A stretch of DNA of 64,000 bases, from positions 14,818,001 to 14,882,000 of the forward strand of contig CM059449.1 in NCBI GenBank assembly GCA_030390025.1, given 5' to 3'. Within the stretch, counting starts at the first letter, position 1. Every line of letters starts with the position of its first letter. Below are positions 714-53,100 of this stretch, in pieces. Source of the stretch: Squalus acanthias. Taxonomy: Eukaryota. Under the pieces are notes generated by a model. That model was not told where the DNA came from. It saw nothing but the letters and a program-made list of their open reading frames with translations, and did no database searches. The position numbers and the translations under genes were made by a program.

Positions 714-770
714 TCATTTTCCTTCACTGAAGTTCAATGTACAATATTGTACTTTCTCTACTTTACTTGT
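714..770 (-). CDS. ITIM-bearing terminal exon, copy 1 (TSKVEKVQYCTLNFSEGK*)
   Basis: Acceptor attttacttctcttcaaacag; ITIM VQYCTL; duplicate of 9369-9425. No upstream exons of its own were found, so it may be an orphan. Confidence 0.55.
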   Translation of the reverse strand, partial: TSKVEKVQYCTLNFSEGK

Positions 771-9368: not shown

Positions 9369-9425
9369 TCATTTTCCTTCATTGAAGTTCAATGTACAAT
9401 ATTGTACTTTCTCTACTTCATTTGT
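9369..9425 (-). CDS. ITIM-bearing terminal exon of an inhibitory-type receptor, copy 2 (TNEVEKVQYCTLNFNEGK*)
   Basis: Acceptor attttatttctcttgaaacag; phase-0 frame contains VQYCTL (V/I/L/S-x-Y-x-x-L/V). Near-identical copy at 714-770. Upstream partner exon not established. Confidence 0.6.
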   Translation of the reverse strand, partial: TNEVEKVQYCTLNFNEGK

Positions 9426-24937: not shown

Positions 24938-26144
24938 AATTACCCGCACTGCATGGCCATCCCATGCTGTCAGATGTACCTATTGGGCAACAAGTCCTGG
25001 ATGCCCCGGAACCCTCTGTAACTCAACATCAGCAAGATTGAAGCCACCCTGTTCGACCTCCACCAGAAAGTTGGCGCCCCGGGTTCTGGTCCTCTTTCCT
25101 GACTGTTCACGTGCCCCGAACCTCCAGGTGGGTAACTATGCAAAGCAAAGGAGATGTAACGTGAGATAACGCATCAAGGTCACAGTCACATAGGATATCA
25201 TTGGTAACGTTGAACCGAGCTGAACTCGAAACCCCACCTTACGTTCATGGGACTTAGGGGAGGGAGCACTACTTTGCACCTGACAGCGATTAGCTGGCAG
25301 GGTCGGTTATGATATTTAATGCACCCACCACCTCTCCCCCCTCAAATTAATACACCTTATAAATGGCACTGCTGCTTATCTCTAATGACGCCAGTGTTTT
25401 CCAGAGCGCTTCATTCACCCCCAACTCCGGCATCAATGACTATCGATATGATAATCTAATTCTTTGAAATCTATGAGATACTTTGTTTTGCGTTAATATT
25501 CCACAACAAAGGAAAACATCAATGATCAAACTTAAAACTGCTGTACAACGAACCTTAGTCATCACTCCAATTGAACAAATGCTGCGAATTCCTGAAATAT
25601 AATTGATGCAACATAATTAGTATTATGCAGCTTCATACAGTCTTGCTATGCAGTTGATTTCCCCCCTCCCTTTGTTTCCTTCTCGTTTTCTTTCAGGTTC
25701 TTGCTGGAATATACTTGCATGGACATCTCTCCAGTACCTAATCCAGACCATCATGCTTCTTGTATGAGGTCAGACAGTGAGGGAGAGTTAAGGCAGAGCC
25801 ATCATTTTTCTGCCCCAGTAGCTGGACTTATCGAACCCCCTGGGCTCGGACAAACCGCAGTTGGAGGCGGGGTGGGAGGGAGGGGAATGAGGCTCCACTT
25901 CGAACATGGGCGCCTCTACGCGCAATTTTCCTTTACTCTCTATGCCTAGGCGATCCAATAGTCCAAGGCACAAGAACAGGGACATCAGTCCATATATTTC
26001 GTTCCAGCAATTTAAAATCACCCAGGTTATAAAATCAGTGACTGATTTATTTGTGAAACAGTGTTTGTACTCTGCCTTCTCTTTGCTTTTATTGTTATCT
26101 TTGCAGTATTTCCGAGTTTTGTAATGTGATCTCTTATATGCTAG

Positions 26145-26667: not shown

Positions 26668-26690
26668 TCAGAAAGGAAAATCTATGCAAG
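26668..26690 (-). CDS. Candidate terminal coding exon giving a short cytoplasmic tail (ACIDFPF*)
   Basis: T-rich acceptor tttttatttgttattttatattttag about 0.8 kb after the TM donor; phase-1 reading G|CT TGC ATA GAT TTT CCT TTC TGA. Minus-strand AATAAA at 26088-26093 and 26046-26051. Confidence 0.5.
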
Positions 26691-27501
26691 CTAAAATATA
26701 AAATAACAAATAAAAATTACGCTTGTGGCTGAGACATTCAAAAACTTGTGCTGTTTGTCTCAGGAATCAACAATGGAAATGCGTTCTTTCTCTCTTATTA
26801 GATGATGCTAGTAGTCTCTGCAATCCAAAGGTTGAGCCTAGTGTTCATACATTTCAACAGGTAAATGCTATTGCTCTATAGCTACGCAACTTTTGTTGTG
26901 TAGCCATCGAAGGGAGGACAAAATAGGTAAAATAGTCAACATGTAGACTCATGTTAACCTTAGTGTTTCAAATGTTTTAGATATTCCACAACATAAAATG
27001 ACTCATAAACTGATTTAAACATTAAATAACATAAAACGATTCCTAATTTGGCACTATGTTCTCAATGTGACCCAGACAGACTGTAAATATAGGCGATGTG
27101 GGCAATGGAAAAGTCACATCGAAACAACAGACAATTCTTCTGAGATAACAGCTGAAGTGCATTGTTTGAGGAGAAATAGAGTAGAGGAAGCTTCACCAAC
27201 AGTGATTTCAGGCTGAAATTACACCTGGACTGCTTAATGTGTTTGTCAGAAATTCCTTCCTCCGCTATTTTACCAAAGTGTTAACCCATGCTTTTTAAAC
27301 TGGATAACATCTCCACTAAAGTAGGGGCAAAGGAATTTCAGAGAAATGTGAACACATTCATGTGCCGTTATCCGATGGAGTGACTAGCGTTGTACTGCCC
27401 AGTGTTAACTTCTGCCACCTGGATGACGGCAAAATTCAGAGAAAACATTATCAATTCAAAACTTTAAGACTATATTCTCAATAGATATTGAATAATCTTA
27501 C

Positions 27502-27606
27502 CTCCCATTCTCCAGAAGAAAATGCCGATGATCACTGTGATGATAACCACACCTCTAACAATATACAGAATCGCGTTTGTGGTCAGATGAATCAAACTCG
27601 GTTTCT
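27502..27606 (-). CDS. Stalk/transmembrane exon of the NCR3-like gene with intramembrane Arg
   Basis: 105-nt phase 1-1 exon (acceptor ctaatag, donor GAG|gtaaga) encoding EKPSLIHLTTNAILYIVRGVVIITVIIGIFFWRMG. The hydrophobic span has an Arg near its outer end, as in NKp30, and is in frame with the V exon. Confidence 0.8.
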
Positions 27607-27738
27607 CTATTAGTCAACAACAACAACAACAACTTGTAATTATTCTTACTCTCTCTTCCCACTGCCTGTCTATGGGTTAGAAATTCAACTTAATCGGTAG
27701 CACAAAGCAGGCGATAACGAATTGGCAATGGGGAACAT

Positions 27739-28318
27739 GGGGCAATTTTAACTTCACCCACCGTCGGGAAATTGGTGGTATCGGATGCAAGGCTGGTCTT
27801 ACAGCCTGACTGAAGACAATGGAGAGTAATAAGAACATAAGAAATAGGAGCAGGAGTAGGCCATTTGGCCCTTCGAGCCTGCTCCGCCATTCAATAAGAT
27901 CATGGCTGATCTTCCACCTCAACTCCACTTTCCTGCCACATCCTCATATCCCTTGATTCCCTGAATATCCAAAAATCTATCGATCTCTGTCTTGAATATA
28001 CTCAACGACTGAGCTTCTACAGCCCTCTGGGGTAGAGAATTCCAAAGATTCACCACCCTCTGAGTGAAGAAATTCTCCTCATCTCAGTCCTAAATGGCCA
28101 ACCCCTTATTCTGAGACTGTGACCCCTGGTTCTAGACTCCCCAGCCAGGGGAAACATCCTCCCAGCATCTACCCTGACAAGCCCTGTAAGAATTTTATAT
28201 GTTTCAATGAGATCACCTCTCATTATTCTAAACTCGAAATATTGGGCGATGTTCAAACCTGGAGTTCCACCTGATCCCGTTGGTTTTCCGCCCGGCGGGG
28301 TAAGTTAACATTGCCCGA
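27739..28318. mobile_element. Palindromic MITE split by a minus-strand CR1 3' end (27830-28237)
   Basis: Inverted ends gggcaattttaactt...aagttaacattgccc with a CR1 in the middle. Confidence 0.65.
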
Positions 28319-28486
28319 AGTTGTCCCTTTTTTCAGTACTTGTCAATGGCTGACTATTTTCTAGTTTAAGCAATCTGATATGGTCTCGCACATACATGAG
28401 TTGCCACCTGCCCTTTATGTTATACGTGCGTAAAGCAAACAGTTTCCATTTTAACTGAACATATTTGTCGGTCAGCTGCCATAGCT

Positions 28487-30690
28487 GTCAGCTGTGGCTC
28501 AGTGGGTTGCACTCTTGCCTCTGAGTTCAGAAGGTTGAGCACAAAAATCTGGATTGACACTCCAGTGCAGTGCTGAGGGGATGCTGCACTGTTGGAGGAG
28601 CCATCTGTCGGATGAGACCTTATACCGAGATCCCGCCCGCTCTCTCAGGTGGACGTAAACGATCCCACGGCACTATTTCGAAGAAGAGCAGGGGAGTTAT
28701 CCCCGGTGTCCTGGCAGATATTTATCTCTCAATTAATAACAAAAACAGATTATCTGGTCATTATCACATTGCTGTTTGGGGCCTCAACTATTTACAATCT
28801 ATATTAATGACTTGGATGAAGGGACCGAATGTAATATAACCACATTTGCTGGTGGTACAAAGATAGGTGGGAAAGCAAATTGTGTGGAGGACGCAAAGAA
28901 TCTCCAAAGGGATATAAATAGGCTAAGTGAGTGGGCAAAAAGCTGGCAGATGGAGTTTAATGTGGGAAAATGCAAGGTTATCCACTTTGGTAGGAAAAAT
29001 AAAAAAGCAAATTATTATTTAAATGGAGGGAGATTACAAAATGCTGAGGTACAGAGGGATCTGGGGGTCCTTGTACATGAATCACAAAAAGTAAGCATGC
29101 AGGTACAGCAAGTAATTAGTAAGACAAATGGAGTGTTGGCCTTTATTGCAAAGGGAATGGAGTATAAAAGTAGGGAAGTCCTGTTACAACTGTACAGGGC
29201 GTTGGTGAGACCACACCTGGAGTACTGCGTAGTTTTGGTCTCCTTATTTAAGGAAGGATATACTTGCATTGGAGGCAGTTCAGAGAAGGTTCACGAGGTT
29301 CATTCCGGAGATGAAGGGGTTGTCTTATGAAGAAACGTTGAGCAGATTGGGCCTATACTCATTGGAGTTTAGAAGAATGAGAGGGGATCTTATGGAAACA
29401 TATAAGGTTCTGAAGGGGATTGACAGGGTAGATGTAGAAAGGATGTTTCCCCTCGTGGGGGAATCGAGAACTAGGGGGCATAATTTCAGAATAAGGGGAC
29501 ACCCATTTAAAACGGAAATGAGGTGGAATTTCTTCTCTCAGAGGGTCGTGCATCTTTGGAATTCTCTTCCCCAGAGAGCTGTGGAGTTTGGGTCATTGAA
29601 TATATTTAAGGTGGAGATAGACAGATTTTTGAAAGGTAAGGGAGTGAAGGGTTATGGGGAGCGGGCAGGGAAGCGGAGTTGAGGCCAAGATCAGATCAGC
29701 CATGATCTTATTGAATGGCGGAGCAGGCTCGAGGGGCCAAATGACCTACTCCTGCTCCTACGTCTTATGTTATGGGCCCAGAAATTAGGCTCCCTGGCTT
29801 CCCGCGGGTGCAAGGTTCCCGCGTGCACCTACCTACCACGCCTGCCGTTGATGTCTGGGCCCAAGGGGACTTCAGCTCCTGGGCCTCCTGCAGCTGCCGG
29901 CACGCAGTGCTTGTGTATCCCAGGGGCGTAGTTAGTGCGATGCGTCCCCTGAGATCACGTGGGCCATGGAGAGCCAATGGCAGCAGACCATCTTTCATTC
30001 ATAGATTTGACAGGAAGACCTGTCAAATCTATGAATTGAAATCGGCCCCAAAACAACACCTAAACTTAAAATAAATTTTTAAAAAATCACATTTTTAAAA
30101 TAACTATAAGTTAAAAAAATTAACTACTTTAAACAAAAATTTAAATTGTTGAAAAAATTAAAATACTTTTTAACAGTGCTAAAAATAAACTTACCTTTCT
30201 TTAAAGTATCTAAAAAAGATAAACCTGTTGAAATTTTTTTTAAGTTGTAATTAATTAGCCACTTACCTTGTTAAAAACGGGTCCTGCGCCTCCTTTTTAA
30301 AAGCGCAGCTTCTTCCGTACTTACCTTCCCGGAGAAACCTGAAAAAAAACCTAAGTTCGCTGCATGCGCGCAGCCTCTCCCACGCACGCGGTTCACCTCT
30401 GAACCGCTCCCTTCACGAGACCAGAAGTTCCGGTTTCCCGCGCATGCGCAGTGCATGCAGGAAACCGGCTCTTCAGGGGGCCTTACGGGTGAGTACACAG
30501 TGCGTACTCACCCGGCAAGTGCCGAATTTTTGGCCCATGATGTTCTAATGTTTGTGGGAGCTTGCTGAGTGCTAATTGGCTGCCGCTTTTCCTACATTAC
30601 AACAGAGACTACACTCCAAAAGTACTTCACTGGCTGTAAAGCGCTTTAAGACGTCCGTTCGTCGTGAAAGGTGCTATAAAAATGTAATTT
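28487..30690 (+). mobile_element. Deu-SINE-like element (28487-28777 and 30549-30690) interrupted by CR1 (28778-29770) and a MITE
   Basis: SINE halves rejoin as cacattgctgttt|gtgggagcttgctg; CR1 RT ORFs 28776-29682 lie between them. Confidence 0.85.
29772..30538. mobile_element. Non-autonomous DNA transposon (MITE), about 770 bp
   Basis: Imperfect TIRs atgggcccagaaattaggc / gccgaatttttggcccat; GC-rich arms, AT-rich core; sits in the CR1 tail. Confidence 0.65.
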
Positions 30691-30854
30691 TATATTTCAA
30701 AATGTTTCAACCAGAATGCCGGAATAGCTAAATTTTGTCACAGTACTGCACTATTTCAGTCTGTGCATAAGATCGCTCCTGACGTATATATGGAACAGAT
30801 GCAGGCTACTCTTTCAGTTTTAACAATACCAAATTAAACAGATTGAATTTGCAA

Positions 30855-31152
30855 CAGAGAAGCAGGCCGTTTGCTGTTTATGCTCCACACGAGCCTCCTG
30901 CCAACTCTCCTCATCTCAATCTATCAGCATATTCTTCCATTCCTTTCTATCTCAGCTGCTTATCTAGATTCCCCTTAGATGCATCTATGCTGTTCACCGC
31001 AACCACTCTATGTGGCAGCGAGTTACACATTCTAACCACTCTCTGGGTAAAGAAGTTTCTCCTGAATTCCCCATTGGAATTAGTAGTGACTATCTTATAT
31101 TTATGGTTCCTAGTTTAGGACCCACACACAAGTGGAAAAATCTTTTCTACGT
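30855..31152 (-). mobile_element. Older CR1 3' end abutting the minisatellite
   Basis: Antisense of RNFFTQRVVRM...LP; 3'UTR remnants. Confidence 0.75.
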
Positions 31153-31162
31153 TAAAACACGG

Positions 31163-34100
31163 ACCACCCAGTCCCAGAGGGGGAAAGGACAGTGTCTGAC
31201 CCACCGCACCACCCTGTCCCAGAGAGGTGAAAGGACAGTGTCTGACCCACTGCACCAACCAGTCCCAGAGGGGGAATGGACAGTGTCTGAACCACCGCAA
31301 CACCCAGTCCCAGAGGAGGAAAGGACAGTGTCTAACCCACTGCACCACCCAGTCCCAGAGGGTGAAAGGACAGTGTCTGACCCACTGCACCACACAGTCC
31401 CAGAGCGGGAAAGGACAGTGTCTGACCCACTGCACCACCCAGTCTCAGAGGGGAAAAGGACAGTGTCTGACCCACTGCACCGCCCAGTCCCAGAGGGGGA
31501 AAGGACAGTGTCTGACCCACTGCACCACCCAGTCCCAGAGGGGGAAAGGACAATGTCTGACCCACTGCACTACCCAGTCCCAGAGGGGGAAAGGACAGTG
31601 TCTGACCCACTGCACAACCCAGTCCAAGAGGGGGAAAGGACAGTGTCTGACCCACTGCACCACCCAGTCCCAGAGAGGGAAAGGACAGTGTCTGACCCAC
31701 TGCACCACCCAGTCCCAGCGGGGGAAAGGACATTGTCTGATGTACCGCAACACCCAGTCCCAGAGGGGGCAAGTAAAGTGTCTGACCCACTGCACCACCC
31801 TGTCCCAGAGGGGGAAAGGACAGTGTCTGACCCACCGTACTACCCAGTCTCAGAGGGGGAAAGGAGAGTGTCTGACCCACCGCACCACCCAGTCGCAGAG
31901 GGGGAAAGGACAGTGTCTGACCCACTGCACCACCCAGTCCCAGAGGGGGAAAGAACAGTGTCTGACCCACTGCACCACCCATTCGCAGAGGGGGAAAGGA
32001 CAGTGTCTGACCCACCGCACCACCCAGTCCAAGAGGGGGAAAGGACAGTGTCTGATCACCGCACCGCCCAGTCCCAGAGGGGGAAAGGACAGTGTCTGAC
32101 TCACTACACCGCCCAGTCCCAGTGGTGGAAAGGATAGTTTCTGACGCACTGCACAACCATATCCCAGAGGGGGAAAGGACAGTGTCTGACCCACTGCACC
32201 ACCCAGTCCCAGAGGGGGAAAGGACAGTGTCTGACCTACTGCACCACCCAGTCCCATGGGGTGAAAGGACAGTGTCTGACCCACCGCACCACCCAGTCCC
32301 AGAGGGTGAAGGGACAGTGTCTGACCCACTGCACCACCCAGTCCCAGAGGGGGAAAGGACAGTGTCTGACCCACTGCACCGCCCAGTCCCAGAGGGGTAA
32401 AGGACAGTGTCTGATCCACTGCACCACCCAGTCCCAGAGGGGGAAAGGACAGTTTCAGCCCTTCCGAACCAGCCAGTCCAAGAGTGTGAATGTAGAGTGT
32501 CTGTCACACTGCAACACCCTGTCTCAGAGGGGGAAAGGACAAAGTCTGACCCTCTCCACCACCCAGTCCCAGAGTGGGAAGAGACTGTGTCTGATCCACT
32601 GCACCACCCAATCTGAGAAGGTGAAAACACAGTGTTTGCCCCTCCGCACCAGGCAGTTCCAGTGGGGGAAAGGACAGTTTTTGACCCACTGCATCACCCA
32701 GTCCCAGAGGGGGAAAGGACAGTGTCTGTTGCACTGCACCACCCAGTCCCAGAGGGGGAATGGACAGTGTCTGACCCACTGCAACGCCCAGTCCCAGAGG
32801 GGGAAAGGACAGTGGCTGACCCACTGCACCGACAAGTACCAGAGAGTGAAAGGACAGTGTCTGACTCACTGCACCACCCAGTCCCAGAGGGGGAAAGGAC
32901 AGTGTCTGACCCACTGCACCACCCAGTCCCAGAGGGTGAAAGGACAGTGTCTGACCCACTACACCACCTAGTCCCAGAGGGGGAAAGGACAGTGTCTGAC
33001 CCACTGCACTGCCCAGTCCCAGAGGGGGAAAGGACAGTGTCTGACCCACTGCACAACCCAGTCCAAGAGGGGGAAAGGACAGTGTCTGACCCACTGCACC
33101 ACCCAGTCCCAGAGGGGGAAAGGACTGTGTTTGACCCACTGCACCACCCAGTCCCAGAGAGGGAAAGGACAGTGTCTGACCCACTGCACCACCCAGTCCC
33201 AGCGGGGGAAAGGACATTGTCTGACGTACCGCACCAGCCAGTCCAAGAGTGTGAATGTAGAGTGTCTGTCACACTGCAACACCCTGTCTCAGAGGGGGAA
33301 AGGACAAAGTCTGACCCTCTCCACCACCCAGTCCCAGAGTGGGAAGAGACTGTGTCTGATCCACTGCACCACCCAATCTGAGAAGGTGAAAACACAGTGT
33401 TTGCCCCTCCGCACCAGGCAGTTCCAGTGGGGGAAAGGACAGTTTTTGACCCACTGCACCACCCAGTCCCAGAGGGGGAAAGGACAGTGTCTGTTGCACT
33501 GCACCACCCAGTCCCAGAGGGGGAATGGACAGTGTCTGACCCACTGCAACGCCCAGTCCCAGAGGGGGAAAGGACAGTGGCTGACCCACTGCACCACCCA
33601 GTCCCAGAGAGGGAAAGGACAGTGTCTGACCCACTGCACCACCCAGTCCCAGCGGGGGAAAGGACATTGTCTGACGTACCGCAACACCCAGTCCCAGAGG
33701 GGGAAAGGACAGTGTCTGACCTACCGCAACACCCAGTCCCAGAGGGGGAAAGGACAGTGTCTGACACACTGCACCACCCAGTCCCAGAGGGGGAAAGGAA
33801 AGTGTCTGACCCACCGCACCACCCATTCCCAGAGGGGGAAAGGACAGTGTCTGACCCACTGCACCACCCAGTCCCAGAGGGGGAAAGGACAGTGTTTGCT
33901 CCACTGCACAACCATATCCCAGAGGGGGAAAGGACAGTGTCTGACCAACCGCACCACCCAGTCCCAGACGGGGAAATGACAGTGTCTGACCCACTGCACC
34001 GCTCAGTCCGAAATGGGGAAAGGGCAGTGTCTGACCCAGAGCACCGCCCAGTACCAGAGGGGGAAATGACAGTGTCTGTCCCACTGCACCGCCCAGTACC

Positions 34101-37100
34101 AGAGGGTGAAAGGACAGTGTCTGACTCACTGCACCACCCAGTCCCAGAGGGGGAAAGGACAGTGTCTGACCTACTGCACCACCCAGTCCCAGAGGGGGAA
34201 AGGACAGTTACTGACCTACTGCACCGCCCAGTCTCAGAGGGTAAAAGGACAGTGTCTGACCCAACGCACCACCCATTCCCAGAGGGGGAAAGGGCAGTGT
34301 CTGACCCACTGCTACAGACAGACCCAGAGGGAGAAAGGACTGTGTCTGACTAACTGCACCACCCAGTCCCAGCGGGGGAAAGGACATTGTCTGACCCACT
34401 GCGCCACCCAGTCCCAGAGGGGGCAAGTAAAGTGTCTGACCCACCGCACCACCCAGCCGCAGAGGGTGAAAGGACAGTGTCTGACCCACTGCACCATCCA
34501 GTCCCAGAGGGGGAAAGAACAGTGTCTGACCCACTGCACCACCCATTCGCAGAGGGGGAAAGGACAGTGTCTGACCCACCGCACCACCCATTCACAGAGG
34601 GGGAAAGGACAGTGTCTGACCCACCGCACCACCCAGTCCCAGAGGGGGAAAGGACAGTGTCTGATCACCGCACCGCCCAGTCCCCGAGGGGGAAAGGACC
34701 GTGTCTGACCCACCGCACTACCCAGTCCCAGAGGGTGAAAGTCCAGTGTCTGATCCACTGCACTACCCAGTCCCAGTGGGGGAAAGGATAGTTTCTGACG
34801 CACTGCACAACCATATCCCAGAGGGGGAAAGGACAGTGTCTGACCAATCGCACCACCCAGTCCCAGAGGGGGAAATGACAGTGTCTGACCCACTGCACCG
34901 CTCAGTCCGAAATGGGGAAAGGGCAGTGTCTGACCCAGAGCACCGCCCAGTACCAGAGGGGGAAAGGACAGTGTCAGTCCCACTGCACCGCCCAGTACCA
35001 GAGGGTGAAAGGACAGTGTCTGACCCACTGCACCACCCAGTCCCAGAGGGGGAAAGGACAATGTCTGACCCACTGCACTACCCAGTCCCAGAGGGGGAAA
35101 GGACAGTGTCTGACCCACTGCACAACCCAGTCCAAGAGGGGGAAAGGACAGTGTCTGACCCACTGCACCAGCCAGTCCCAGAGAGGGAAAGGACAGTGTC
35201 TGACCCACTGCACCACCCAGTCCCAGCGGGGGAAAGGACATTGTCTGATGTACCGCAACACCCAGTCCCAGAGGGGGCAAGTAAAGTGTCTGACCCACTG
35301 CACCACCCTGTCCCAGAGGGGGAAAGGACAGTGTCTGACCCACCGTACTACCCAGTCTCAGAGGGGGAAAGGTGAGTGTCTGACCCACCGCACCACCCAG
35401 TCGCAGAGGGGGAAAGGACAGTGTCTGACCCACTGCACCACCCAGTCCCAGAGGGGGAAAGAACAGTGTCTGACCCACTGCACCACCCATTCGCAGAGGG
35501 GGAAAGGACAGTGTCTGACCCACCGCACCACCCAGTCCAAGAGGGGGAAAGGACAGTGTCTGATCACCGCACCGCCCAGTCCCAGAGGGGGAAAGGACAG
35601 TGTCTGACTCACTACACCGCCCAGTCCCAGTGGTGGAAAGGATAGTTTCTGACGCACTGCACAACCATATCCCAGAGGGGGAAAGGACAGTGTCTGACCC
35701 ACTGCACCACCCAGTCCCAGAGGGGGAAAGGACAGTGTCTGACCTACTGCACCACCCAGTCCCATGGGGTGAAAGGACAGTGTCTGACCCACCGCACCAC
35801 CCAGTCCCAGAGGGTGAAGGGACAGTGTCTGACCCACTGCACCACCCAGTCCCAGAGGGGGAAAGGACAGTGTCTGACCCACTGCACCGCCCAGTCCCAG
35901 AGGGGTAAAGGACAGTGTCTGATCCACTGCACCACCCAGTCCCAGAGGGGGAAAGGACAGTTTCAGCCCTTCCGAACCAGCCAGTCCAAGAGTGTGAATG
36001 TAGAGTGTCTGTCACACTGCAACACCCTGTCTCAGAGGGGGAAAGGACAAAGTCTGACCCTCTCCACCACCCAGTCCCAGAGTGGGAAGAGACTGTGTCT
36101 GATCCACTGCACCACCCAATCTGAGAAGGTGAAAACACAGTGTTTGCCCCTCCGCACCAGGCAGTTCCAGTGGGGGAAAGGACAGTTTTTGACCCACTGC
36201 ACCACCCAGTCCCAGAGGGGGAAAGGACAGTGTCTGTTGCACTGCACCACCCAGTCCCAGAGGGGATATGGACAGTGTCTGACCCACTGCAACGCCCAGT
36301 CCCAGAGGGGGAAAGGACAGTGGCTGACCCACTGCACCGCCAAGTACCAGAGAGTGAAAGGACAGTGTCTGACTCACTGCACCACCCAGTCCCAGAGGGG
36401 GAAAGGACAGTGTCTGACCCACTGCACCACCCAGTCCCAGAGGGTGAAAGGACAGTGTGTGACCCACTACACCACCTAGTCCCAGAGGGGGAAAGGACAG
36501 TGTCTGACCCACTGCACTGCCCAGTCCCAGAGGGGGAAAGGACAGTGTCTGACCCACTGCACAACCCAGTCCAAGAGAGGGAAAGGACAGTGTCTGACCC
36601 ACTGCACCACCCAGTCCCAGAGGGGGAAAGGACTGTGTTTGACCCACTGCACCACCCAGTCCCAGAGAGGGAAAGGACAGTGTCTGACCCACTGCACCAC
36701 CCAGTCCCAGCGGGGGAAAGGACATTGTCTGACGTACCGCAACACCCAGTCCCAGAGGGGGAAAGGACAGTGTCTGACCTACCGCAACACCCAGTCCCAG
36801 AGGGGGAAAGGACAGTGTCTGACACACTGCACCACCCAGTCCCAGAGGGGGAAAGGACAGTGTCTGACCCACCGCACCACCCAATCCCAGAGGGGGAAAG
36901 GACAGTGTCTGACCCACTGCACCACCCAGTCCCAGAGGGGGAAAGGACAGTGTTTGCTCCACTGCACAACCATATCCCAGAGGGGGAAAGGACAGTGTCT
37001 GACCAACCGCACCACCCAGTCCCAGACGGGGAAATGACAGTGTCTGACCCACTGCACCGCTCAGTCCGAAATGGGGAAAGGGCAGTGTCTGACCCAGAGC

Positions 37101-43100: not shown

Positions 43101-46100
43101 GGAAAGGACAGTGTCTGACCCACTGCACCACCCAGTCCCAGAGGGGGAAAGGACTGTGTTTGACCCACTGCACCACCCAGTCCCAGAGAGGGAAAGGACA
43201 GTGTCTGACCCACTGCACCACCCAGTCCCAGCGGGGGAAAGGACATTGTCTGACGTACCGCAACACCCAGTCCCAGAGGGGGAAAGGACAGTGTCTGACC
43301 TACCGCAACACCCAGTCCCAGAGGGGGAAAGGACAGTGTCTGACACACTGCACCACCCAGTCCCAGAGGGGGAAAGGACAGTGTCTGACCCACCGCACCA
43401 CCCAATCCCAGAGGGGGAAAGGACAGTGTCTGACCCACTGCACCACCCAGTCCCAGAGGGGGAAAGGACAGTGTTTGCTCCACTGCACAACCATATCCCA
43501 GAGGGGGAAAGGACAGTGTCTGACCAACCGCACCACCCAGTCCCAGACGGGGAAATGACAGTGTCTGACCCACTGCACCGCTCAGTCCGAAATGGGGAAA
43601 GGGCAGTGTCTGACCCAGAGCACCGCCCAGTACCAGAGGGGGAAATGACAGTGTCTGTCCCACTGCACCGCCCAGTACCAGAGGGTGAAAGGACAGTGTC
43701 TGACTCACTGCACCACCCAGTCCCAGAGGGGGAAAGGACAGTGTCTGACCTACTGCACCACCCAGTCCCAGAGGGGGAAAGGACAGTTACTGACCTACTG
43801 CACCGCCCAGTCCCAGAGGGTAAAAGGACAGTGTCTGACCCAACGCACCACCCATTCCCAGAGGGGGAAAGGGCAGTGTCTGACCCACTGCTACAGACAG
43901 ACCCAGAGGGAGAAAGGACTGTGTCTGACTAACTGCACCACCCAGTCCCAGCGGGGGAAAGGACATTGTCTGACCCACTGCGCCACCCAGTCCCAGAGGG
44001 GGCAAGTAAAGTGTCTGACCCACCGCACCACCCAGCCGCAGAGGGTGAAAGGACAGTGTCTGACCCACTGCACCATCCAGTCCCAGAGGGGGAAAGAACA
44101 GTGTCTGACCCACTGCACCACCCATTCGCAGAGGGGGAAAGGACAGTGTCTGACCCACCGCACCACCCATTCACAGAGGGGGAAAGGACAGTGTCTGACC
44201 CACCGCACCACCCAGTCCCAGAGGGGGAAAGGACAGTGTCTGATCACCGCACCGCCCAGTCCCCGAGGGGGAAAGGACCGTGTCTGACCCACCGCACTAC
44301 CCAGTCCCAGAGGGTGAAAGTCCAGTGTCTGATCCACTGCACTACCCAGTCCCAGTGGGGGAAAGGATAGTTTCTGACGCACTGCACAACCATATCCCAG
44401 AGGGGGAAAGGACAGTGTCTGACCAATCGCACCACCCAGTCCCAGAGGGGGAAATGACAGTGTCTGACCCACTGCACCGCTCAGTCCGAAATGGGGAAAG
44501 GGCAGTGTCTGACCCAGAGCACCGCCCAGTACCAGAGGGGGAAAGGACAGTGTCAGTCCCACTGCACCGCCCAGTACCAGAGGGTGAAAGGACAGTGTCT
44601 GACTCACTGCACCACCCAGTCCCAGAGGGGGAAAGGACAGTGTCTGACCCACTGCACCACCCAGTCCCAGAGGGTGAAAGGACAGTGTCTGACCCACTAC
44701 AGCACCTAGTCCCAGAGGGGGAAAGGACAGTGTCTGACCCACTGCACCGCCCAGTCCCAGAGGGTGAAAGGGCAGTGTCTGACCCACTACACCACCTAGT
44801 CCCAGAGGGGGAAAGGACAGTGTCTGACCCACTGCACTGCCCAGTCCCAGAGGGGGAAAGGACAGTGTCTGACCCACTGCACAACCCAGTCCAAGAGGGG
44901 GAAAGGACAGTGTCTGACCCACTGCACCACCCAGTCCCAGAGGGGGAAAGGACTGTGTTTGACCCACTGCACCACCCAGTCCCAGAGAGGGAAAGGACAG
45001 TGTCTGACCCACTGCACCACCCAGTCCCAGCGGGGGAAAGGACATTGTCTGACGTACCGCAACACCCAGTCCCAGAGGGGGAAAGGACAGTGTCTGACCT
45101 ACCGCAACACCCAGTCCCAGAGGGGGAAAGGACAGTGTCTGACACACTGCACCACCCAGTCCCAGAGGGGGAAAGGACAGTGTCTGACCCACCGCACCAC
45201 CCAATCCCAGAGGGGGAAAGGACAGTGTCTGACCCACTGCACCACCCAGTCCCAGAGGGGGAAAGGACAGTGTTTGCTCCACTGCACAACCATATCCCAG
45301 AGGGGGAAAGGACAGTGTCTGACCAACCGCACCACCCAGTCCCAGACGCGGAAATGACAGTGTCTGACCCACTGCACCGCTCAGTCCGAAATGGGGAAAG
45401 GGCAGTGTCTGACCCAGAGCACCGCCCAGTACCAGAGGGGGAAATGACAGTGTCTGTCCCACTGCACCGCCCAGTACCAGAGGGTGAAAGGACAGTGTCT
45501 GACTCACTGCACCACCCAGTCCCAGAGGGGGAAAGGACAGTGTCTGACCTACTGCACCACCCAGTCCCAGAGGGGGAAAGGACAGTTACTGACCTACTGC
45601 ACCGCCCAGTCCCAGAGGGTAAAAGGACAGTGTCTGACCCAACGCACCACCCATTCCCAGAGGGGGAAAGGGCAGTGTCTGACCCACTGCTACAGACAGA
45701 CCCAGAGGGAGAAAGGACTGTGTCTGACTAACTGCACCACCCAGTCCCAGCGGGGGAAAGGACATTGTCTGACCCACTGCGCCACCCAGTCCCAGAGGGG
45801 GCAAGTAAAGTGTCTGACCCACCGCACCACCCAGCCGCAGAGGGTGAAAGGACAGTGTCTGACCCACTGCACCATCCAGTCCCAGAGGGGGAAAGAACAG
45901 TGTCTGACCCACTGCACCACCCATTCGCAGAGGGGGAAAGGACAGTGTCTGACCCACCGCACCACCCATTCACAGAGGGGGAAAGGACAGTGTCTGACCC
46001 ACCGCACCACCCAGTCCCAGAGGGGGAAAGGACAGTGTCTGATCACCGCACCGCCCAGTCCCCGAGGGGGAAAGGACCGTGTCTGACCCACCGCACTACC

Positions 46101-49100
46101 CAGTCCCAGAGGGTGAAAGTCCAGTGTCTGATCCACTGCACTACCCAGTCCCAGTGGGGGAAAGGATAGTTTCTGACGCACTGCACAACCATATCCCAGA
46201 GGGGGAAAGGACAGTGTCTGACCAATCGCACCACCCAGTCCCAGAGGGGGAAATGACAGTGTCTGACCCACTGCACCGCTCAGTCCGAAATGGGGAAAGG
46301 GCAGTGTCTGACCCAGAGCACCGCCCAGTACCAGAGGGGGAAAGGACAGTGTCAGTCCCACTGCACCGCCCAGTACCAGAGGGTGAAAGGACAGTGTCTG
46401 ACTCACTGCACCACCCAGTCCCAGAGGGGGAAAGGACAGTGTCTGACCCACTGCACCACCCAGTCCCAGAGGGTGAAAGGACAGTGTCTGACCCACTACA
46501 GCACCTAGTCCCAGAGGGGGAAAGGACAGTGTCTGACCCACTGCACTGCCCAGTCCCAGAGGGGGAAAGGACAGTGTCTGACCCACTGCACAACCCAGTC
46601 CAAGAGGGGGAAAGGACAGTGTCTGACCCACTGCACCACCCAGTCCCAGAGGGGGAAAGGACTGTGTTTGACCCACTGCACCACCCAGTCCCAGAGAGGG
46701 AAAGGACAGTGTCTGACCCACTGCACCACCCAGTCCCAGCGGGGGAAAGGACATTGTCTGACGTACCGCAACACCCAGTCCCAGAGGGGGAAAGGACAGT
46801 GTCTGACCTACCGCAACACCCAGTCCCAGAGGGGGAAAGGACAGTGTCTGACACACTGCACCACCCAGTCCCAGAGGGGGAAAGGACAGTGTCTGACCCA
46901 CCGCACCACCCAATCCCAGAGGGGGAAAGGACAGTGTCTGACCCACTGCACCACCCAGTCCCAGAGGGGGAAATGACAGTGTTTGCTCCACTGCACAACC
47001 ATATCCCAGTGGGGGAAAGGACAGTGTCTGACCAACCGCACCACCCAGTCCCAGACGGGGAAATGACAGTGTCTGACCCACTGCACCGCTCAGTCCGAAA
47101 TGGGGAAAGGGCAGTGTCTGACCCAGAGCACCGCCCAGTACCAGAGGGGGAAATGACAGTGTCTGTCCCACTGCACCGCCCAGTACCAGAGGGTGAAAGG
47201 ACAGTGTCTGACTCACTGCACCACCCAGTCCCAGAGGGGGAAAGGACAGTGTCTGACCTACTGCACCACCCAGTCCCAGAGGGGGAAAGGACAGTTACTG
47301 ACCTACTGCACCGCCCAGTCCCAGAGGGTAAAAGGACAGTGTCTGACCCAACGCACCACCCATTCCCAGAGGGGGAAAGGGCAGTGTCTGACCCACTGCT
47401 ACAGACAGACCCAGAGGGAGAAAGGACTGTGTCTGACTAACTGCACCACCCAGTCCCAGCGGGGGAAAGGACATTGTCTGACCCACTGCGCCACCCAGTC
47501 CCAGAGGGGGCAAGTAAAGTGTCTGACCCACCGCACCACCCAGCCGCAGAGGGTGAAAGGACAGTGTCTGACCCACTGCACCATCCAGTCCCAGAGGGGG
47601 AAAGAACAGTGTCTGACCCACTGCACCACCCATTCGCAGAGGGGGAAAGGACAGTGTCTGACCCACCGCACCACCCATTCACAGAGGGGGAAAGGACAGT
47701 GTCTGACCCACCGCACCACCCAGTCCCAGAGGGGGAAAGGACAGTGTCTGATCACCGCACCGCCCAGTCCCCGAGGGGGAAAGGACCGTGTCTGACCCAC
47801 CGCACTACCCAGTCCCAGAGGGTGAAAGTCCAGTGTCTGATCCACTGCACTACCCAGTCCCAGTGGGGGAAAGGATAGTTTCTGACGCACTGCACAACCA
47901 TATCCCAGAGGGGGAAAGGACAGTGTCTGATCAATCGCACCACCCAGTCCCAGAGGGGGAAATGACAGTGTCTGACCCACTGCACCGCTCAGTCCGAAAT
48001 GGGGAAAGGGCAGTGTCTGACCCAGAGCACCGCCCAGTACCAGAGGGGGAAAGGACAGTGTCAGTCCCACTGCACCGCCCAGTACCAGAGGGTGAAAGGA
48101 CAGTGTCTGACTCACTGCACCACCCAGTCCCAGAGGGGGAAAGGACAGTGTCTGACCCACTGCACCACCCAGTCCCAGAGGGTGAAAGGACAGTGTCTGA
48201 CCCACTACAGCACCTAGTCCCAGAGGGGGAAAGGACAGTGTCTGACCCACTGCACCGCCCAGTCCCAGAGGGTGAAAGGGCAGTGTCTGACCCACGGCAC
48301 CACCCAGTCTCAGAGGGGGAAAGGACAGTGTCTGACCCACCGCACCACCCAGTCCCAGAGGGGGAAAGGACAGTGTCTGACCTACTGCACCACCCAGTCC
48401 CAGATGGGGAAAGGACATTGTCTGACCCACTGCACCGCACAGTCCCAGAGGGGGAAAGGACAGTGTCTGACCTACTGCACCACCCAGTCCCATGGGGTGA
48501 AAGGACAGTGTCTGACCCACTGCACCACCCAGTCCCAGAGGCGGAAAGGACAGTGTCTGACCCACTGCACCGCCCAGTCCCAGAGGGATAAAGGACAGTG
48601 TCTGATCCACTGCACCACCCAGTCCCAGAGGGGGAAAGGACAGTGTCAGCCCTTCCGCACCAGCCAGTCGAAGAGTGTGAATGTAGAGTGTCTGTCCCAC
48701 TGCAACACCCTGTCTCAGAGGGGGAAAGGACAAAGTCTGACCCTCTCCACCACCCAGTCCCAGAGTGGGAAGAGACTGTGTCTGATCCACTGCACCACCC
48801 AATCTGAGAAGGTGAAAACACATTGTTTGCCCCTCCGCACCAGGCAGTTCCAGTGGGGGAAAGGACAGTTTTTGACCCACTGCACCACCCAGTCCCAGAG
48901 GGGGAAAGGACAGTGTCTGTCGCACTGCACCACCCAGTCCCAGAGGGGGAATGGAGAGTGTCTGACCCACTGCACCGCCCAGTCCCAGAGGGGGAATGGA
49001 CAGTGTCTGACCCACTACAGCACCTAGTCCCAGAGGGGGAAAGGACAGTGTCTGACCCACTGCACCGCCCAGTCCCAGAGGGTGAAAGGACAGTGTCTGA

Positions 49101-50345
49101 CCCACGGCACCACCCAGTCTCAGAGGGGGAAAGGACAGTGTCTGACCTACTGCACCACCCAGTCCCATGGGGTGAAAGGACATTGTCTGACCCACTGCAC
49201 CGCCCAGTCCCAGAGGGGGAAAGGACAGTGTCTGACCCACCGAACTGCCCAGTCCCAGAGGGGGAAAGGACAGTGTCTGACCTACTGCACCACCCAGTCC
49301 CAGAGGGTGAAAGGACAGTGTCTGACCCACTACACCACCTAGTCCCAGAGGGGGAAAGGACAGTGTCTGACCCACTGCACCGCCCAGTCCCAGAGGGTGA
49401 AAGGACAGTGTCTGACCCACGGCACCACCCAGTCTCAGAGGGGGAAAGGACAGTGTCTGACCCACCGCACCACCCAGTCCCAGAGGGGGAAAGGACAGTG
49501 TCTGACCTACTGCACCACCCAGTCCCAGATGAGGAAAGGACATTGTCTGACCCACTGCTGCGCCCAGTCCCAGAGGGGGAAAGGACAGTGTCTGACCCAC
49601 TGCACCACCCAGTCCCAGAGGGGGAAAGGACAGTGTCTGACCTACTGCACCACCCAGTCCCATGGGGTGAAAGGACAGTGTCTGACCCACTGCACCACCC
49701 AGTCCCAGAGGGGGAAAGGACAGTGTCTGACCCACTGCACCGCCCAGTCCCAGAGGGATAAAGGACAGTGTCTGATCCACTGCACCACCCAGTCCCAGAG
49801 GGTGAAAGGACAGTGTCAGCCCTTCCGCACCAGCCAGTCCAAGAGTGTGAATGTAGAGTGTCTGTCACACTGCAACACCCTGTCTCAGAGGGGGAAAGGA
49901 CAAAGTCTGACCCTCTCCACCACCCAGTCCCAGAGTGGGAAGAGACTGTGTCTGATCCACTGCACCACCCAATCTGAGAAGGTGAAAACACAGTGTTTGC
50001 CCCTCCGCACCAGGCAGTTCCAGTGGGGGAAAGGACAGTTTTTGACCCACTGCACCACCCAGTCCCAGAGGGGGAAAGGACAGTGTCTGTCGCACTGCAC
50101 CACCCAGTCCCAGAGGGGGAATGGACAGTGTCTGACCCACTGCAACGCCCAGTCCCAGAGGGTGAAAGGGCAGTGTCTGACCCACTGCACCACCCAGTCC
50201 CAGAGGGGGAATGGACAGTGTCTGACCCACTGCAACGCCCAGTCCCAGAGTGTGAAAGGACAGAGTCTAACCCACTGCATCACCCAGTACCAGAGTGTGA
50301 AAGGACAGTGTCTGACCCACTGCACCACCCAGTCCCAGAGGGGAA
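31163..50345. repeat. 45-bp minisatellite, about 19.2 kb, about 426 units, with higher-order block structure
   Basis: Consensus CCCACTGCACCACCCAGTCCCAGAGGGGGAAAGGACAGTGTCTGA repeated throughout; variant-unit strings recur at fixed offsets. Confidence 0.99.
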
Positions 50346-50581
50346 AAGGCCTAACCTGTCGTACCGCCCTTTATGTGGTGTATAAAGTTCCAGTACATAA
50401 TATGCACATTGCACCAACCGGTCATTTACAGAAATGTACGGTTAGATTTTCATCTGCAACGGGCAGCCGATTCTTAACACAAATTTTACACTTCGGCAGT
50501 AAGTTGAAAAATATTCTTCAGTCAGTATATGGGTAATTACAATTGCAGTTCGATGATATCAGAGGCAGGCGAATCACTCAC

Positions 50582-50925
50582 CTCTCACAGTGAGATGCGT
50601 TCCGGCTCCGTATTCCTCGCCGAGTTGCATCAGTTTCACTTTGCAGTAATACACCCCGGAATCGTTCACACTCAGGTCCTTTAGTAGAATGGAAACGTCT
50701 CTGGTATGAAAAAAATCATCTTCTTGGGCGTGTGGATCCGGCTTCTGTACTCTGCTGTTCTGTTGGAGACTTCTGTTCCATTTCTGGTGTCCTTGTACCA
50801 GGTGTAAGACCCTATCGCCTTAGAGACGTTGGCTGTGTAGGTACAGGGGATGAGCACGGTCTCCCCTTCCACCGCCAGAATACAGGGCACCTTCTGAATA
50901 ACTGTGAACCTCTCAGCGTTAATCC
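50582..50925 (-). pseudogene. NCR3: Ig V(J)-type domain exon of an NCR3/NKp30-like receptor; 1-bp frameshift (true pseudogene or homopolymer/assembly error)
   Basis: Acceptor cctcgtttccag at 50926+ and donor GAG|gtgagt at 50576-50581; phase 1-1 exon of 344 nt (345 expected). Translation: (R)INAERFTVIQKVPCILAVEGETVLIPCTYTANVSKAIGSYTWYKDTRNGTEVSNRTAEYRSRIHTP/fs/FFHTRDVSILLKDLSVNDSGVYYCKVKLMQLGEEYGAGTHLTVR. B-strand Cys, C-strand Trp, DSGVYYC and J-like GxGT all lie in one exon. AIGSxTW, GxEVxNxTxExRxR and LGxxxGxGTxLxV match human NKp30 as recalled. The symbol indicates family, not proven orthology. Confidence 0.9.
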
Positions 50926-51113
50926 CTGGAAACGAGGAACGTTCATGCTACCTGAGTCGAATTTGTAACTTTGAGAGACAGTGCTGCTAAAACCGGTATG
51001 GAACGCCCGAACTTTCTATAACTTGACAACGATTGGAGTTTGAACAAGTGTGAACTTCTGAGCAACCATTGCTGATAATAAAGGGTGATTTTGCCTTGTT
51101 GCAAATTGTACTA

Positions 51114-51911
51114 CTGGGGTAGATTGTCAACTTGAAAAATCCATACCGGGCGGCAAATTTGCAATGCCAGATTTGCGCCCCGGCCGAAAGCTGAAATTCT
51201 ACCCTATAATTAACGTAATATCCCGGTTTGCTAGCCATTCTTTTAATGACGGATTAATCTGTGTTGTTGTTTTGCTAGCAGGTTAACACTTCAACAGTAC
51301 CGTTTACACAATATGCATGAGTGTACTCACATGCCCAGTTTTCCGGATTGCGCGGGGATAATTTTCAGGTTCACTGCTTGGTGGAGCGAATCCATCGCCT
51401 GTTGTAGAATGCGCCTGATTTTCATCCCGTTTTTGGGGTGAAATTGCTTTTGGGCGCCTGTTTTTCTTTCCCATTGACGTTAATGCTGAAGAAAATCGGG
51501 CGGATGTTAAAACTGGCTGTGATTTGCTACCGCCCATTTTGTGCTCCTGTCCAAGACCAATTTTACTCGTTTTATGTCAAAGCACGTGAAAATCAGGCAG
51601 TTTTCTGCAAGCAGTTTTATTCCCCGGGGGTAAATCTACACACAATATGATTTGCTTTTCAGTGTTATGATTTGATTAGGACATCAGAATAAAAAAAAGG
51701 ACAACTCTGATTGATATAAATGGCTACTGTCCATTTGATATCTTAGGGGTGAAATTGGACATGAGCGGCGATGCAATACAGGCGGAATCGCCCGTTTACC
51801 GCACACCTGATATTCAGTTCTATGGAACTGAATATCAGGAGGGATGAATAACGGGCAACCAATGCTTATCGTCTGTCTTGCATCGCCGGTTATGTCCAAT
51901 TTCACCCCCCA
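51114..51911. mobile_element. Cluster of short palindromic MITEs in the leader-V intron; best copy 51746-51910
   Basis: ggggtgaaattggacat...atgtccaatttcacccc with central perfect 15-bp IR cctgatattcagttc/gaactgaatatcagg; further ggggtaga..tctaccc pair at 51115-51204. Confidence 0.75.
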
Positions 51912-51948
51912 ATGTACCTGTGAGACAAGTAAAATGAATACACAGTTA

Positions 51949-52599
51949 GTCATAGAATCATAGAATATTTGCAGCACAGAAGGAGGCCATTCGGCCCGTC
52001 GAGCCCGTGCCGACTCTCTGCAAGAGCACTTCAGCTAGTCCCACACCCCCGCCCTTTCCCCGTAGCCCTGCAATTTTTTTTCCTTCAGGTACTTATCCAA
52101 TTCCCTCTTGAAAGCCAGGATTGAGTCTGCCTTCACCACCCTCTCAGGCAGTGCACTCCAGACCCTAACCACTCGCTGCTTAAAAAATATTTTCCTCATG
52201 TCACCTTTGGTTCTTTTGCCAATCACCTTAAATCTGTGTCCTCTGGTTCTCGACCCTTCTGCCAATGGGAACAGTTTCTCTCTATCTGCTCTGTCCAGAC
52301 CCCTCATGATTTTGAACACCTCTATCAAATCTCCTCTCAACCTTCTCTGCTCCAAGGAGAACAACCCCAGATTCTCCAGTCTGTCCACGTAAGTGAAGTT
52401 CCTCCTCCCTGGAATCGTTCTCATAAATCTTTTCTGCACCCTCTCTAAGGCCTTCACACCCTTCCTAAATTGTGACGCCCAGAATTGGACACAATACTCC
52501 AGTTGAGGCCGAACCAATGTTTTATAAAGGTTCATCATAACTCCCTTGCTCTTTATACTCTATGCTTCTATTTATGAAGCCCAGTATCCCGTATGCTTT
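51949..52599 (-). mobile_element. CR1 3' end
   Basis: ORF 52035-52538; (catagaat)n tail. Confidence 0.92.
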
Positions 52600-52712
52600 A
52601 GTCCTGAGTTCCAATAATTAATATACTGGCATATTAACAGTATTTCAAAATGATCGGTGGAAACATTCGGCTGCTAAATGAGGAATGGAAAAAAAATGAA
52701 GCATCTACTTAC

Positions 52713-52755
52713 TCGAGAGAGGAATTAATATCCATAGGATGCTGATTGGATTCAT
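52713..52755 (-). CDS. Leader (signal peptide) exon of the minus-strand NCR3-like gene; exon 52713-52760 includes 5 nt of 5'UTR
   Basis: Acceptor ctctttctctaattccattactgcag, then GAAGA-ATG, MNPISILWILIPLS + 1 nt, donor A|gtaagt. Phase 1 joins the V exon in frame to give MNPISILWILIPLSRINA-ERFTVIQ. Confidence 0.85.
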
Positions 52756-53100
52756 TCTTCCTGCAGTAATGGAATTAGAGAAAGAGGATGAAATAAATAG
52801 GCAAGACCAGAAAATAAGAAACTGCATTCTAACTATGGAGGTGCAAGTCATTCCTAATGTGTGCCCCTTCAATATACGTTTACCGAATATCAGGAGACCT
52901 ACTGAGTGTGAAACAGAAAAAATGAACGAGTTAGCGCAGAGCAGGCGCAGGGGAATGTGATGAGTCTGTTCTGTCTATTTTGAAATGTGATCTGCCCAGA
53001 ACCGAAATGATGTACTCGCTGGTTAATTCAAACAGCTAACATGTTGAAATCAAGCTTGCTAAAAATAAATAATTGCAGACCTACTTTACATTGATTCAGA

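Follow-up and report, generated by a model that had tools for sequence, protein, structure and literature searches.

The 64,000-nucleotide stretch of Squalus acanthias DNA analyzed here (the window) carries on its minus strand four exons that together predict a small, single-domain immunoglobulin (Ig) receptor of the NCR3/NKp30 family (Table 1). Direct reading of the minus strand confirmed the canonical splice sites and the frame-corrected product of 171 residues that had been proposed in a preliminary description of the locus. Once the V exon is corrected by one base, all exon junctions are in phase 1, and the spliced frame, which as assembled meets a stop after 95 residues, extends to 171 residues with an N placed at the break. 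The predicted product has sequons at residues 47, 63, 69 and 102, cysteines at residues 29, 42, 109 and 166, and a transmembrane (TM) window with a mean hydropathy of 2.65, and each half of its V domain matches the Pfam V-set profile (E 7e-6 and 9e-8). Its signal peptide is weakly hydrophobic, with an arginine at the site where the inverted four-V gene that it faces has a glycine; the same neighbor contains a leader exon homologue of equal layout (82% over 39 nt). Since homologues of exons 1-3 were found elsewhere, these exons do not represent chance matches. The fourth exon of the proposed gene is less firmly placed, as it represents one of three or more possible short tails, is recognized by its splice signal, and has no homologue in the 264 kb searched. 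The AG acceptor of the leader exon implies an upstream untranslated exon, but none was located by homology to the four-V neighbor. Neither the TM nor the leader exon recurred in DNA searches of the genome, which does not by itself prove them unique, and a V-profile scan found no Ig exon between the V and TM exons, the V and J-like strand lying together in one germline exon. The extra cysteine noted earlier is indeed read in the assembled sequence, but none of the four closest paralogues has it, nor do contigs of three other organisms, and it is not confirmed by any locus-specific contig.

Table 1. Features of the NCR3-family gene and associated repeats and exon copies, in window coordinates.
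Feature	Position	Strand	Remarks
Leader exon	52760-52713	-	AG acceptor; 5 untranslated bases; ATG at 52755; donor GTAAGT; putative signal peptide
V exon, single VJ-type Ig, NCR3 family	50925-50582	-	344 nt; donor GTGAGT; V and J-like strand together
One-base loss, frame shift in assembly	50722..50725	-	Gap relative to 4/4 close paralogues; base present in contigs of other runs
Intron piece	50350..50581	-	86% identical to intron behind the neighbor's fourth V exon, up to common minisatellite insertion point
45-bp minisatellite, higher-order repeats	31163-50349	.	426.6 copies, 19.2 kb
Stalk/TM exon, mid-membrane arginine	27606-27502	-	105 nt; donor GTAAGA
Predicted terminal coding exon	26690-26668	-	Splice signal and phase; short tail without tyrosine motif
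Candidate alternative terminal exon in old dispersed repeat	25107..25135	-	Short motif-free tail; region matches basking-shark model tail, E 1.4e-8
ITIM-like terminal exon copy, phase 0, early stop	9369..9425	-	92% over 421 nt to last-exon region of gene at C26:14,899,130-549
Second ITIM-like terminal exon copy, same early stop	714..770	-	87% over 287 nt to gene at C26:14,899,130-549

The assignment of this gene to the NCR3 family, proposed at the outset, is supported by searches of solved structures, by a V-domain tree and, for the nearest paralogue, by a search with its fold. Human NCR3 was the only match below E 0.05 for the N-terminal half of the V domain among 177,635 PDB sequences (E 3e-7; next 0.054), and in the sequence search of solved structures with the closest intact paralogue NCR3 reached E 2e-17 as compared to 3e-8 for the next family. 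When the paralogue V4, which is 75% identical, served as a stand-in for the window V in a fold search, its AlphaFold model (pLDDT 91.5) retrieved NKp30 chains at ranks 1-4. Likewise, in a tree of 63 V-domain rows the window V grouped with mammalian and nurse-shark NCR3, apart (100/100) from an outgroup of 12 V rows of its own genome, which we take to be Ig/TCR-type from their motifs; the tree held no SIRP, CD8, NITR or CD28 rows. In addition, close relatives bear the database names NCR3 or NCR3-like (P0013, P0069, P0082). An origin of the V domain in another VJ-type family (SIRP, CD8, NITR, pIgR-like, TCR or Ig) might be argued from its C-terminal half, which taken alone matches scFv, TCR and VNAR as well as or better than NCR3, and from multi-V relatives that some databases call pIgR-like or SIRP-beta-like. 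However, NCR3 came first by wide margins in the full-length V searches and the fold search, and both the separation from Ig/TCR-type V domains in the tree and the names of the close relatives point the same way, so that we consider such an origin extremely improbable.

The missing base in the V exon is a loss in this assembly, and in the species the reading frame is likely unbroken. The extra base is present in locus-specific contigs of runs X2 (50528-50842; 2 substitutions and 1 gap relative to the window) and X3 (50637-50787; 0 substitutions and 1 gap), as well as in homologous contigs of runs X6, X7 and X11 from other organisms, and the base is carried by all contigs that bridge the site (two runs of organism A, three runs of other organisms). 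Alternatively, the assembled copy might be a real null allele or a young pseudogene with a truncated product, as occurs in birth-and-death receptor clusters. The frame is broken in the assembly, other V exons of the cluster are damaged (an internal stop in 3 of 46 matches, in addition to further copies with stops or frameshifts), and the sample in which the base is intact departs from the window sequence at numerous sites near the break, which suggests that it probably derives from another animal and that assembly error is not provable from it. Moreover, because X2 and X3 represent one sample and runs X5 and X10 do not cover the break, there is room for a null allele in the assembled animal. 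On the other hand, the loss falls in a short run of bases, a common site of error, exons 1-3 show no second lesion, and the branch of the window V in the tree is short (0.074). We therefore regard a null allele as unlikely, although with appreciable weight, and favor a frame that is intact in the species; the frameshift should not be read as gene loss. Contigs of run X10, which was taken as RNA by guess, carry over the V exon the diagnostic bases of the four-V neighbor and not those of the window gene. No transcripts of the latter were seen among the run contigs examined, its splicing thus being predicted, and the loose ends of read contigs contained no V-to-TM junction.

The V and TM exons are separated by a 23-kb intron, of which 19.2 kb consists of the 45-bp array and approximately 3.8 kb is free of it, and no other V exon was found between them. 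That both belong to one gene is supported by a basking-shark gene model (XP_078422539.1, P0014; listed as uncharacterized LOC144695539), which joins the same V subfamily (66% identity) to the same arginine-bearing TM (70%; 19 of 27 residues) and is followed by the same repeat-like sequence. Judged by these similarities, the basking-shark gene is likely the orthologue, although it is unnamed in the database. It should be noted that P0014 is a gene model as well, with a tail apparently read from a repeat. A word-index protein search at near length gave no match, and a search with P0014 returned only P0014, the method being insensitive. The four-V neighbor contains an array of the same minisatellite family in its V4-TM intron (188.5 copies, 8.5 kb), and a wrong link between the V and TM exons could have arisen if the assembly was misjoined at the two arrays or if a real inversion took place between them, with ectodomains and signaling modules swapped between the genes. 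The arrays of 19.2 and 8.5 kb are about 90% alike, mutually inverted and each situated in a V-TM intron, and reads may not span them. However, their unit catalogues are separate (5 types common to 109 and 50; longest exact match 94 nt), each array retains a distinctive pattern along its whole length and shows no chimeric junction, and other sharks and rays show the arginine TM with one V (P0014) and the other TM with several V domains (P0002, P0003, P0005), as assembled here. A wrong link is therefore quite improbable, and we retain the V and TM exons as parts of one gene. It is also conceivable, but in our opinion very improbable, that the inverted arrays act as recombination sites at which a crossover would flip both TM/tail modules and rewire the one-V and four-V ectodomains to activating and inhibitory ends. 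If true, such a crossover, in the germ line or in lymphocytes, would constitute a switch-like rearrangement in a non-rearranging VJ family, on a contig with MHC class I. The inverted geometry is observed, while the separate unit catalogues speak against frequent exchange. The array family is spread along the contig, and its sense strand contains no AGCT, which argues against a classical AID switch region.

The activating-type TM segment claimed in the preliminary description is supported by the arginine itself, which is also kept in basking-shark P0014. Genes of both zeta-family adaptors (CD3zeta and FcR-gamma) are present in the genome, where two PF11628 matches were found, both with the cysteine and the TM aspartate. 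Homology searches over 864 kb of the cluster yielded 14 TM exons, of which only that of this gene has a mid-membrane arginine. The gene is predicted to encode an activating receptor. For human NKp30, arginine-aspartate pairing with adaptors has been described (PMC6514059). By a comparable mechanism, the single V domain would bind a cell-surface ligand, probably a B7-family protein, and the TM arginine would pair with the aspartate of CD3zeta or FcR-gamma; the adaptor ITAMs would then signal, since the receptor's own predicted tail is without a motif. All three candidate tails are short, and the two spliced ones (the 26690 and 25135 exons) lack tyrosine. A longer tail with an ITIM, combined with a charged TM as in NKp44, could result from splicing to the exons at 9425 or 770, which have intact acceptors and are situated farther downstream on that strand without another V or TM exon intervening; in the Heterodontus model P0006 an exon of this kind is linked to this V subfamily. 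However, the phases do not fit, the ITIM-like exons being in phase 0 and the end of the TM exon in phase 1, and a phase-bridging exon was looked for and not found. Furthermore, the ITIM-like exons are recent copies of the last exon of another gene, duplicated together with its flanks, and both have the same early stop and no longer contain the second tyrosine. We consider an ITIM tail improbable and the exon at 9369..9425 probably an orphan duplicate, and prefer a short, motif-free tail.

The parallel with human NKp30 (NCR3, CD337) that had been drawn earlier holds for the domain layout and the TM arginine but less so for the ligand. Both receptors have one VJ-type Ig domain, a short stalk, a TM arginine and a tail without ITAM, the human features being taken from PMC6514059. 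In a by-eye alignment mapping, 4 of the 11 listed B7-H6 contact residues and 3 of the 4 mutationally tested ones are identical, whereas 7 of the 11 differ, including a change of Glu111 to Lys at a salt-bridge position, and binding of B7-H6 by the shark receptor is doubtful. Ile50, Gly51, Ser52, Phe85 and the Asn68 sequon are kept, while the Asn42 sequon has moved by two residues and a cysteine occupies the position of Glu26. Moreover, the human NCR3 gene is single, whereas the shark gene is part of a cluster that comprises dozens of V exons. The latter is in line with the multigene, non-rearranging VJ family of shark NCR3, of which eight nurse-shark accessions (MT914154-914161) are cited in PMC12227049. 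Nurse-shark QTT61904.1, likewise with a charged TM, is placed in one large clade with the window V, but it belongs to another subfamily with a TM lysine, which has counterparts in this genome at C26:13.60 and 13.67 Mb.

The inverted four-V neighbor has no basic TM residue and a long tail with tyrosine motifs, its TM and tail exons matching shark proteins with long tyrosine-bearing tails; its best motif, IQYAMI, is only ITIM-like. The window V is 75-79% identical to the V exons of this neighbor, with a dS of 0.069-0.091, as compared to 66% identity for the basking-shark arginine-TM gene. At the position of Gly51, V1-V3 of the neighbor have a tryptophan. The dN/dS of 1.5-1.6 between the window V and the neighbor's V exons derives from 5.5-7 synonymous differences, so that positive selection is not claimed. 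Together with the intron homology that ends at the minisatellite (Table 1), these similarities point to a probable transfer of the V exon from one gene to the other, through gene conversion or duplication of the exon, in a tract ending inside the minisatellite; they would also fit homogenization of the ectodomains at a time when the signaling ends had already diverged. In the AU test neither a clade of the window V with the basking-shark V (p 0.053) nor one with the neighbor's V domains (p 0.30) was rejected, and since the subfamily tree is unresolved as well, gene conversion is not proven by phylogeny. In paired receptors such as KIR2DS/2DL, Siglec-14/5 and PILR-beta/alpha, adjacent genes encode similar ectodomains with opposite signaling ends, and gene conversion keeps the ectodomains alike. 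The present genes differ from these in belonging to the NCR3 family, in combining one V with four V domains, in a large minisatellite, common to both genes, at which the homology tract ends, and in that opposite signaling is deduced from sequence only. The window gene and its neighbor are likely a paired activating/inhibitory couple, in which the four-V receptor would recognize an identical or related ligand and attenuate the signal.

At least 46 V exons were found around the gene, in agreement with its proposed membership in an NCR3 cluster, and the cluster is dominated by uncharged, ITIM-type genes. MHC class I is represented on the same contig by 16 of 50 matches (30.7-38.4 Mb, 16-24 Mb away), although the best-scoring ones are on other, small contigs. 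Shark NCR3 families have already been described; the cluster setting and the inverted neighbor with tyrosine motifs are new here. Our literature search, to whose scope Kinlein (2021), Flajnik (2012) and Ohta and Flajnik (2015) were external, returned no description of paired shark NCR3 genes, by which we do not claim their absence from print. In summary, we consider it quite probable that the window holds a four-exon NCR3/NKp30 gene that is likely intact in the species, predicted to be activating, and likely paired with an inhibitory neighbor of nearly identical ligand-binding domain. The analysis has thereby recovered a predicted activating receptor of the shark NKp30 family that appears to be unannotated. 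If the pairing is real, cartilaginous fish had in their NCR3 family a paired activating/inhibitory logic that has disappeared from the single NKp30 gene of mammals, and the two genes would provide a concrete test case for NK-like cell signaling in sharks.

Direct reading of the sequence verified the four minus-strand exons of the preliminary description, with AG/GT ends at the same positions (Table). As assembled, the frame of the splice product stops after 95 aa; with an N inserted at the break, a one-base loss in the V exon (50722-50725), it reaches the proposed length of 171 aa and includes all four N-glycosylation sequons described, as well as a TM with a mean hydropathy of 2.65 over 19 residues. 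Since the leader exon, like its counterpart in the neighbouring gene, starts at an acceptor five bases ahead of the ATG, a further untranslated exon upstream is likely from the sequence. The second intron spans 23 kb, of which 19.2 kb are a 45-bp minisatellite. Several further fragments in the window we take, from their motifs, to be LINE reverse transcriptase/endonuclease remnants.

Coordinates of features in the window and on contig CM059449.1 (C26; prefixed where contig positions are given)
Feature	Position	Remarks
Leader exon	52760-52713
V exon	50925-50582
TM exon	27606-27502
Exon 4	26690-26668
Array in V-TM intron of window gene	31163-50349	45-bp unit, higher-order repeat ~1.7-1.8 kb
Array in V-TM intron of neighbour	C26:14,778,036-14,786,513	45-bp unit, own higher-order repeat
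Neighbour gene (L002-L005, L037-L041)	C26:14,767,600-14,804,140	opposite strand, ~57 kb from window TM exon
Second four-V gene (L043, L044)	C26:14,886,536-14,899,469	head to head with window gene; TM uncharged; terminal exon with two tyrosine motifs
ITIM-like exons	9425 and 770	phase 0, early stop
Orphan copies of last exon of second four-V gene	9231-9651 and 523-809	inverted, early stop identical
Lysine-TM NCR3 genes	C26:13,598,787 and 13,672,853	nurse-shark QTT61904.1 type; the latter behind three tandem V exons
LINE-like fragments	3465-4373, 5970-8000, 10726-11721, 22834-24138, 28740-29330, 52035-52559	frames resemble reverse transcriptase/endonuclease

The window V has one base fewer than all four close paralogues. 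Sequencing runs X2 and X3, both from a single sample of organism A, gave contigs that are nearly identical to the window locus and have one extra base behind 50723, while those from X5 and X10 do not reach the break; in three other organisms (X6, X7 and X11), homologous contigs likewise show a base at 50722-50724. The presence of this base in both sets of contigs indicates that the intact V frame is ancestral and occurs in the species, in which the gene is probably intact. The X2/X3 sample has many differences from the window near the break and probably came from an animal other than the assembled one, and the contig data fit either of two origins of the missing base, which may be an assembly error or a null allele.

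Among named proteins, those of sharks and rays come closest. With the N-terminal 68 residues encoded by the V exon as query, the best matches were four human NCR3 chains (E 3e-7), with the next family at 0.054; the C-terminal half taken by itself does not discriminate between families. The closest intact paralogue matched NCR3 at 2e-17, ahead of pIgR (3e-8), TCR (8e-7) and SIRP (9e-6). Likewise, in a fold search with the modelled paralogue V4 (pLDDT 91.5), which is 75% identical to the window V and served as its stand-in, NKp30 chains ranked first to fourth and SIRP-alpha after them. In a maximum-likelihood tree of 63 V domains, left from 87 after 18 redundant rows of the outgroup and 6 others had been dropped, the window V fell into a 16-row elasmobranch subfamily (97/91) that nests in a clade with mammalian and nurse-shark NCR3, apart (100/100) from an outgroup of 12 Ig/TCR-type rows, with SIRP, CD8 and NITR rows absent. 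Searches and tree thus agree with the NCR3-type V domain first proposed, and the window gene is a genuine NCR3-family member. That such homologues are known from cartilaginous fish is borne out by eight nurse-shark accessions in the accessible text of PMC12227049, where NCR3 is a non-rearranging, MHC-linked VJ gene; NKp30 is described likewise in part of PMC10751288 and counted among joined-VJ receptors in an excerpt of PMC11599192. In the accessible portions of PMC3964593, PMC10450919, PMC12272517, PMC11302387 and PMC12863176 the topic appears only in reference lists or general text. Shark NCR3 genes are already known, and the window gene adds one more member. At two loci on G000:C29 (L122 and L129), IgH-type V frames continue through a J-like segment to a splice donor; these are apparently germline-joined VDJ genes.

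V-half matches occurred in at least 46 places (68 candidates scored, 3.7-Gb genome), every one on C26 at 13.59-17.13 Mb, which confirms membership of an NCR3 cluster. Within 864 kb, tblastn with 11 shark-homologue queries found ITIM-like terminal exons at 14 places and 14 TM exons, 10 uncharged, two with lysine, one with glutamate and one, that of the window gene, with the sole arginine; a hydropathy scan turned up a few more candidate TMs, of which one has an Arg near the outer border. Of 50 MHC class I matches, 16 lay on C26, at 30.7-38.4 Mb and 16-24 Mb from the window gene; alpha-2-like exons of MHC class I in that stretch number 16 or more. In another NCR3 subfamily, the two-V protein P0025 (Chiloscyllium XP_043533794.1) has a TM arginine in a comparable position, and its relative P0082 an uncharged TM and ITIM-like motifs; the two are possibly a second activating/inhibitory pair.

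Among 153 proteins the TM exon had one strong match (E 5e-10), basking-shark XP_078422539.1, which has a V of the same subfamily (66%) and shares 19 of 27 TM-region residues, arginine included. No further V exon was found between the window V and TM exons. The assignment of both exons to one gene therefore gains from a model in which the same V subfamily and TM are joined, while the junction itself stays predicted, by homology to this gene model and not from transcripts. The acceptor of exon 4 is good, yet no homologue of the exon was found; an alternative acceptor at 25135 lies within an old dispersed repeat, from which the basking-shark model also takes its tail, and would end the tail after nine codons, and if the TM exon is read on into the intron, the tail is again short. 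The ITIM-like exons of the window are copies, 92% and 87% identical, of the terminal exon of the second four-V gene (C26:14.886-14.899 Mb), and a search for an exon bridging the phase from the TM found none. Since all candidate ends are short and the ITIM-like exons are in phase 0 without a bridging exon, a short tail lacking signalling motifs, as originally described, is likely, exon 4 being its less certain part, and the gene is predicted to be of activating type. The genome has two zeta-family adaptor genes, both with TM Cys and Asp; an Arg-Asp adaptor mechanism is treated in the accessible text of PMC6514059.

NKp30 contacts with B7-H6, from a table in the accessible part of PMC3135353, were transferred by eye from window V/NCR3 alignments. 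Four residues (Ile50, Gly51, Ser52, Phe85) are unchanged, Leu86 and Leu113 conservatively replaced, and Val53, Leu80, Ser82, Glu111 and Gly114 unmatched, the salt-bridge residue Glu111 being Lys. The Asn68 sequon is retained and that of Asn42 displaced by two; both matter for binding by human NKp30, according to the accessible text of PMC7409301, which also assigns human Glu26 to the dimer interface in structure 3NOI. The extra Cys noted earlier, present in the assembled V, aligns with this Glu26, but four paralogues have Ser there and homologous contigs from X6, X7, X11 and X12 have the same base change, whereas the locus-specific contigs do not reach this site; the cysteine may be private to the assembled copy, or an error.

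The neighbour gene has a leader and four V exons in tandem; its TM carries a glutamate and its tail exons carry tyrosine motifs. Multi-V proteins of this kind occur in rays and sharks. Its V1-V3 have Trp in place of Gly51 of NKp30, and V4 retains Gly; an X12 contig (presumed RNA, organism B) joining V end to V start fits V-to-V splicing. The window V is 75-79% identical to these V exons, with dS of 0.069-0.091 (the protein comparison took V2-V4; V1 and V2 differ by two bases). The intron after V4 is 86% identical to that of the window gene and enters the same 45-bp array (188.5 copies in the neighbour) at the same point, and past the arrays matches are confined to common repeats. Other sharks have counterparts of both TM types, so the two signalling ends are old, in contrast to the closely similar V exons.

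The two arrays are mutually inverted and enclose both TM modules, so that a crossover between them would swap ectodomains. They have 5 unit types in common, of 109 and 50, and a longest exact match of 94 nt, with a chimeric junction seen in neither and AGCT absent from the sense strand of both; frequent array-mediated switching, like a mis-join of the assembly between the arrays, is therefore unlikely. With 40 of 411 candidates scored, members of the 45-bp family were also seen at many other sites of C26 (5.6-17.9 Mb) and on two small contigs, C350 and C984.

In paired receptors such as KIR, Siglec and PILR, ectodomains are kept alike by gene conversion, and the combination of old signalling ends with similar V exons fits this pattern. 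By analogy, the window gene and its neighbour are likely, though not proven, to be paired receptors, whose V exons may be kept alike in this way; against gene conversion count the unresolved subfamily tree and an AU test in which a joint group of the window and basking-shark V domains was not rejected (p 0.053). Of what the analysis adds to the NCR3 finding, this likely pairing with a four-V gene is of most interest.
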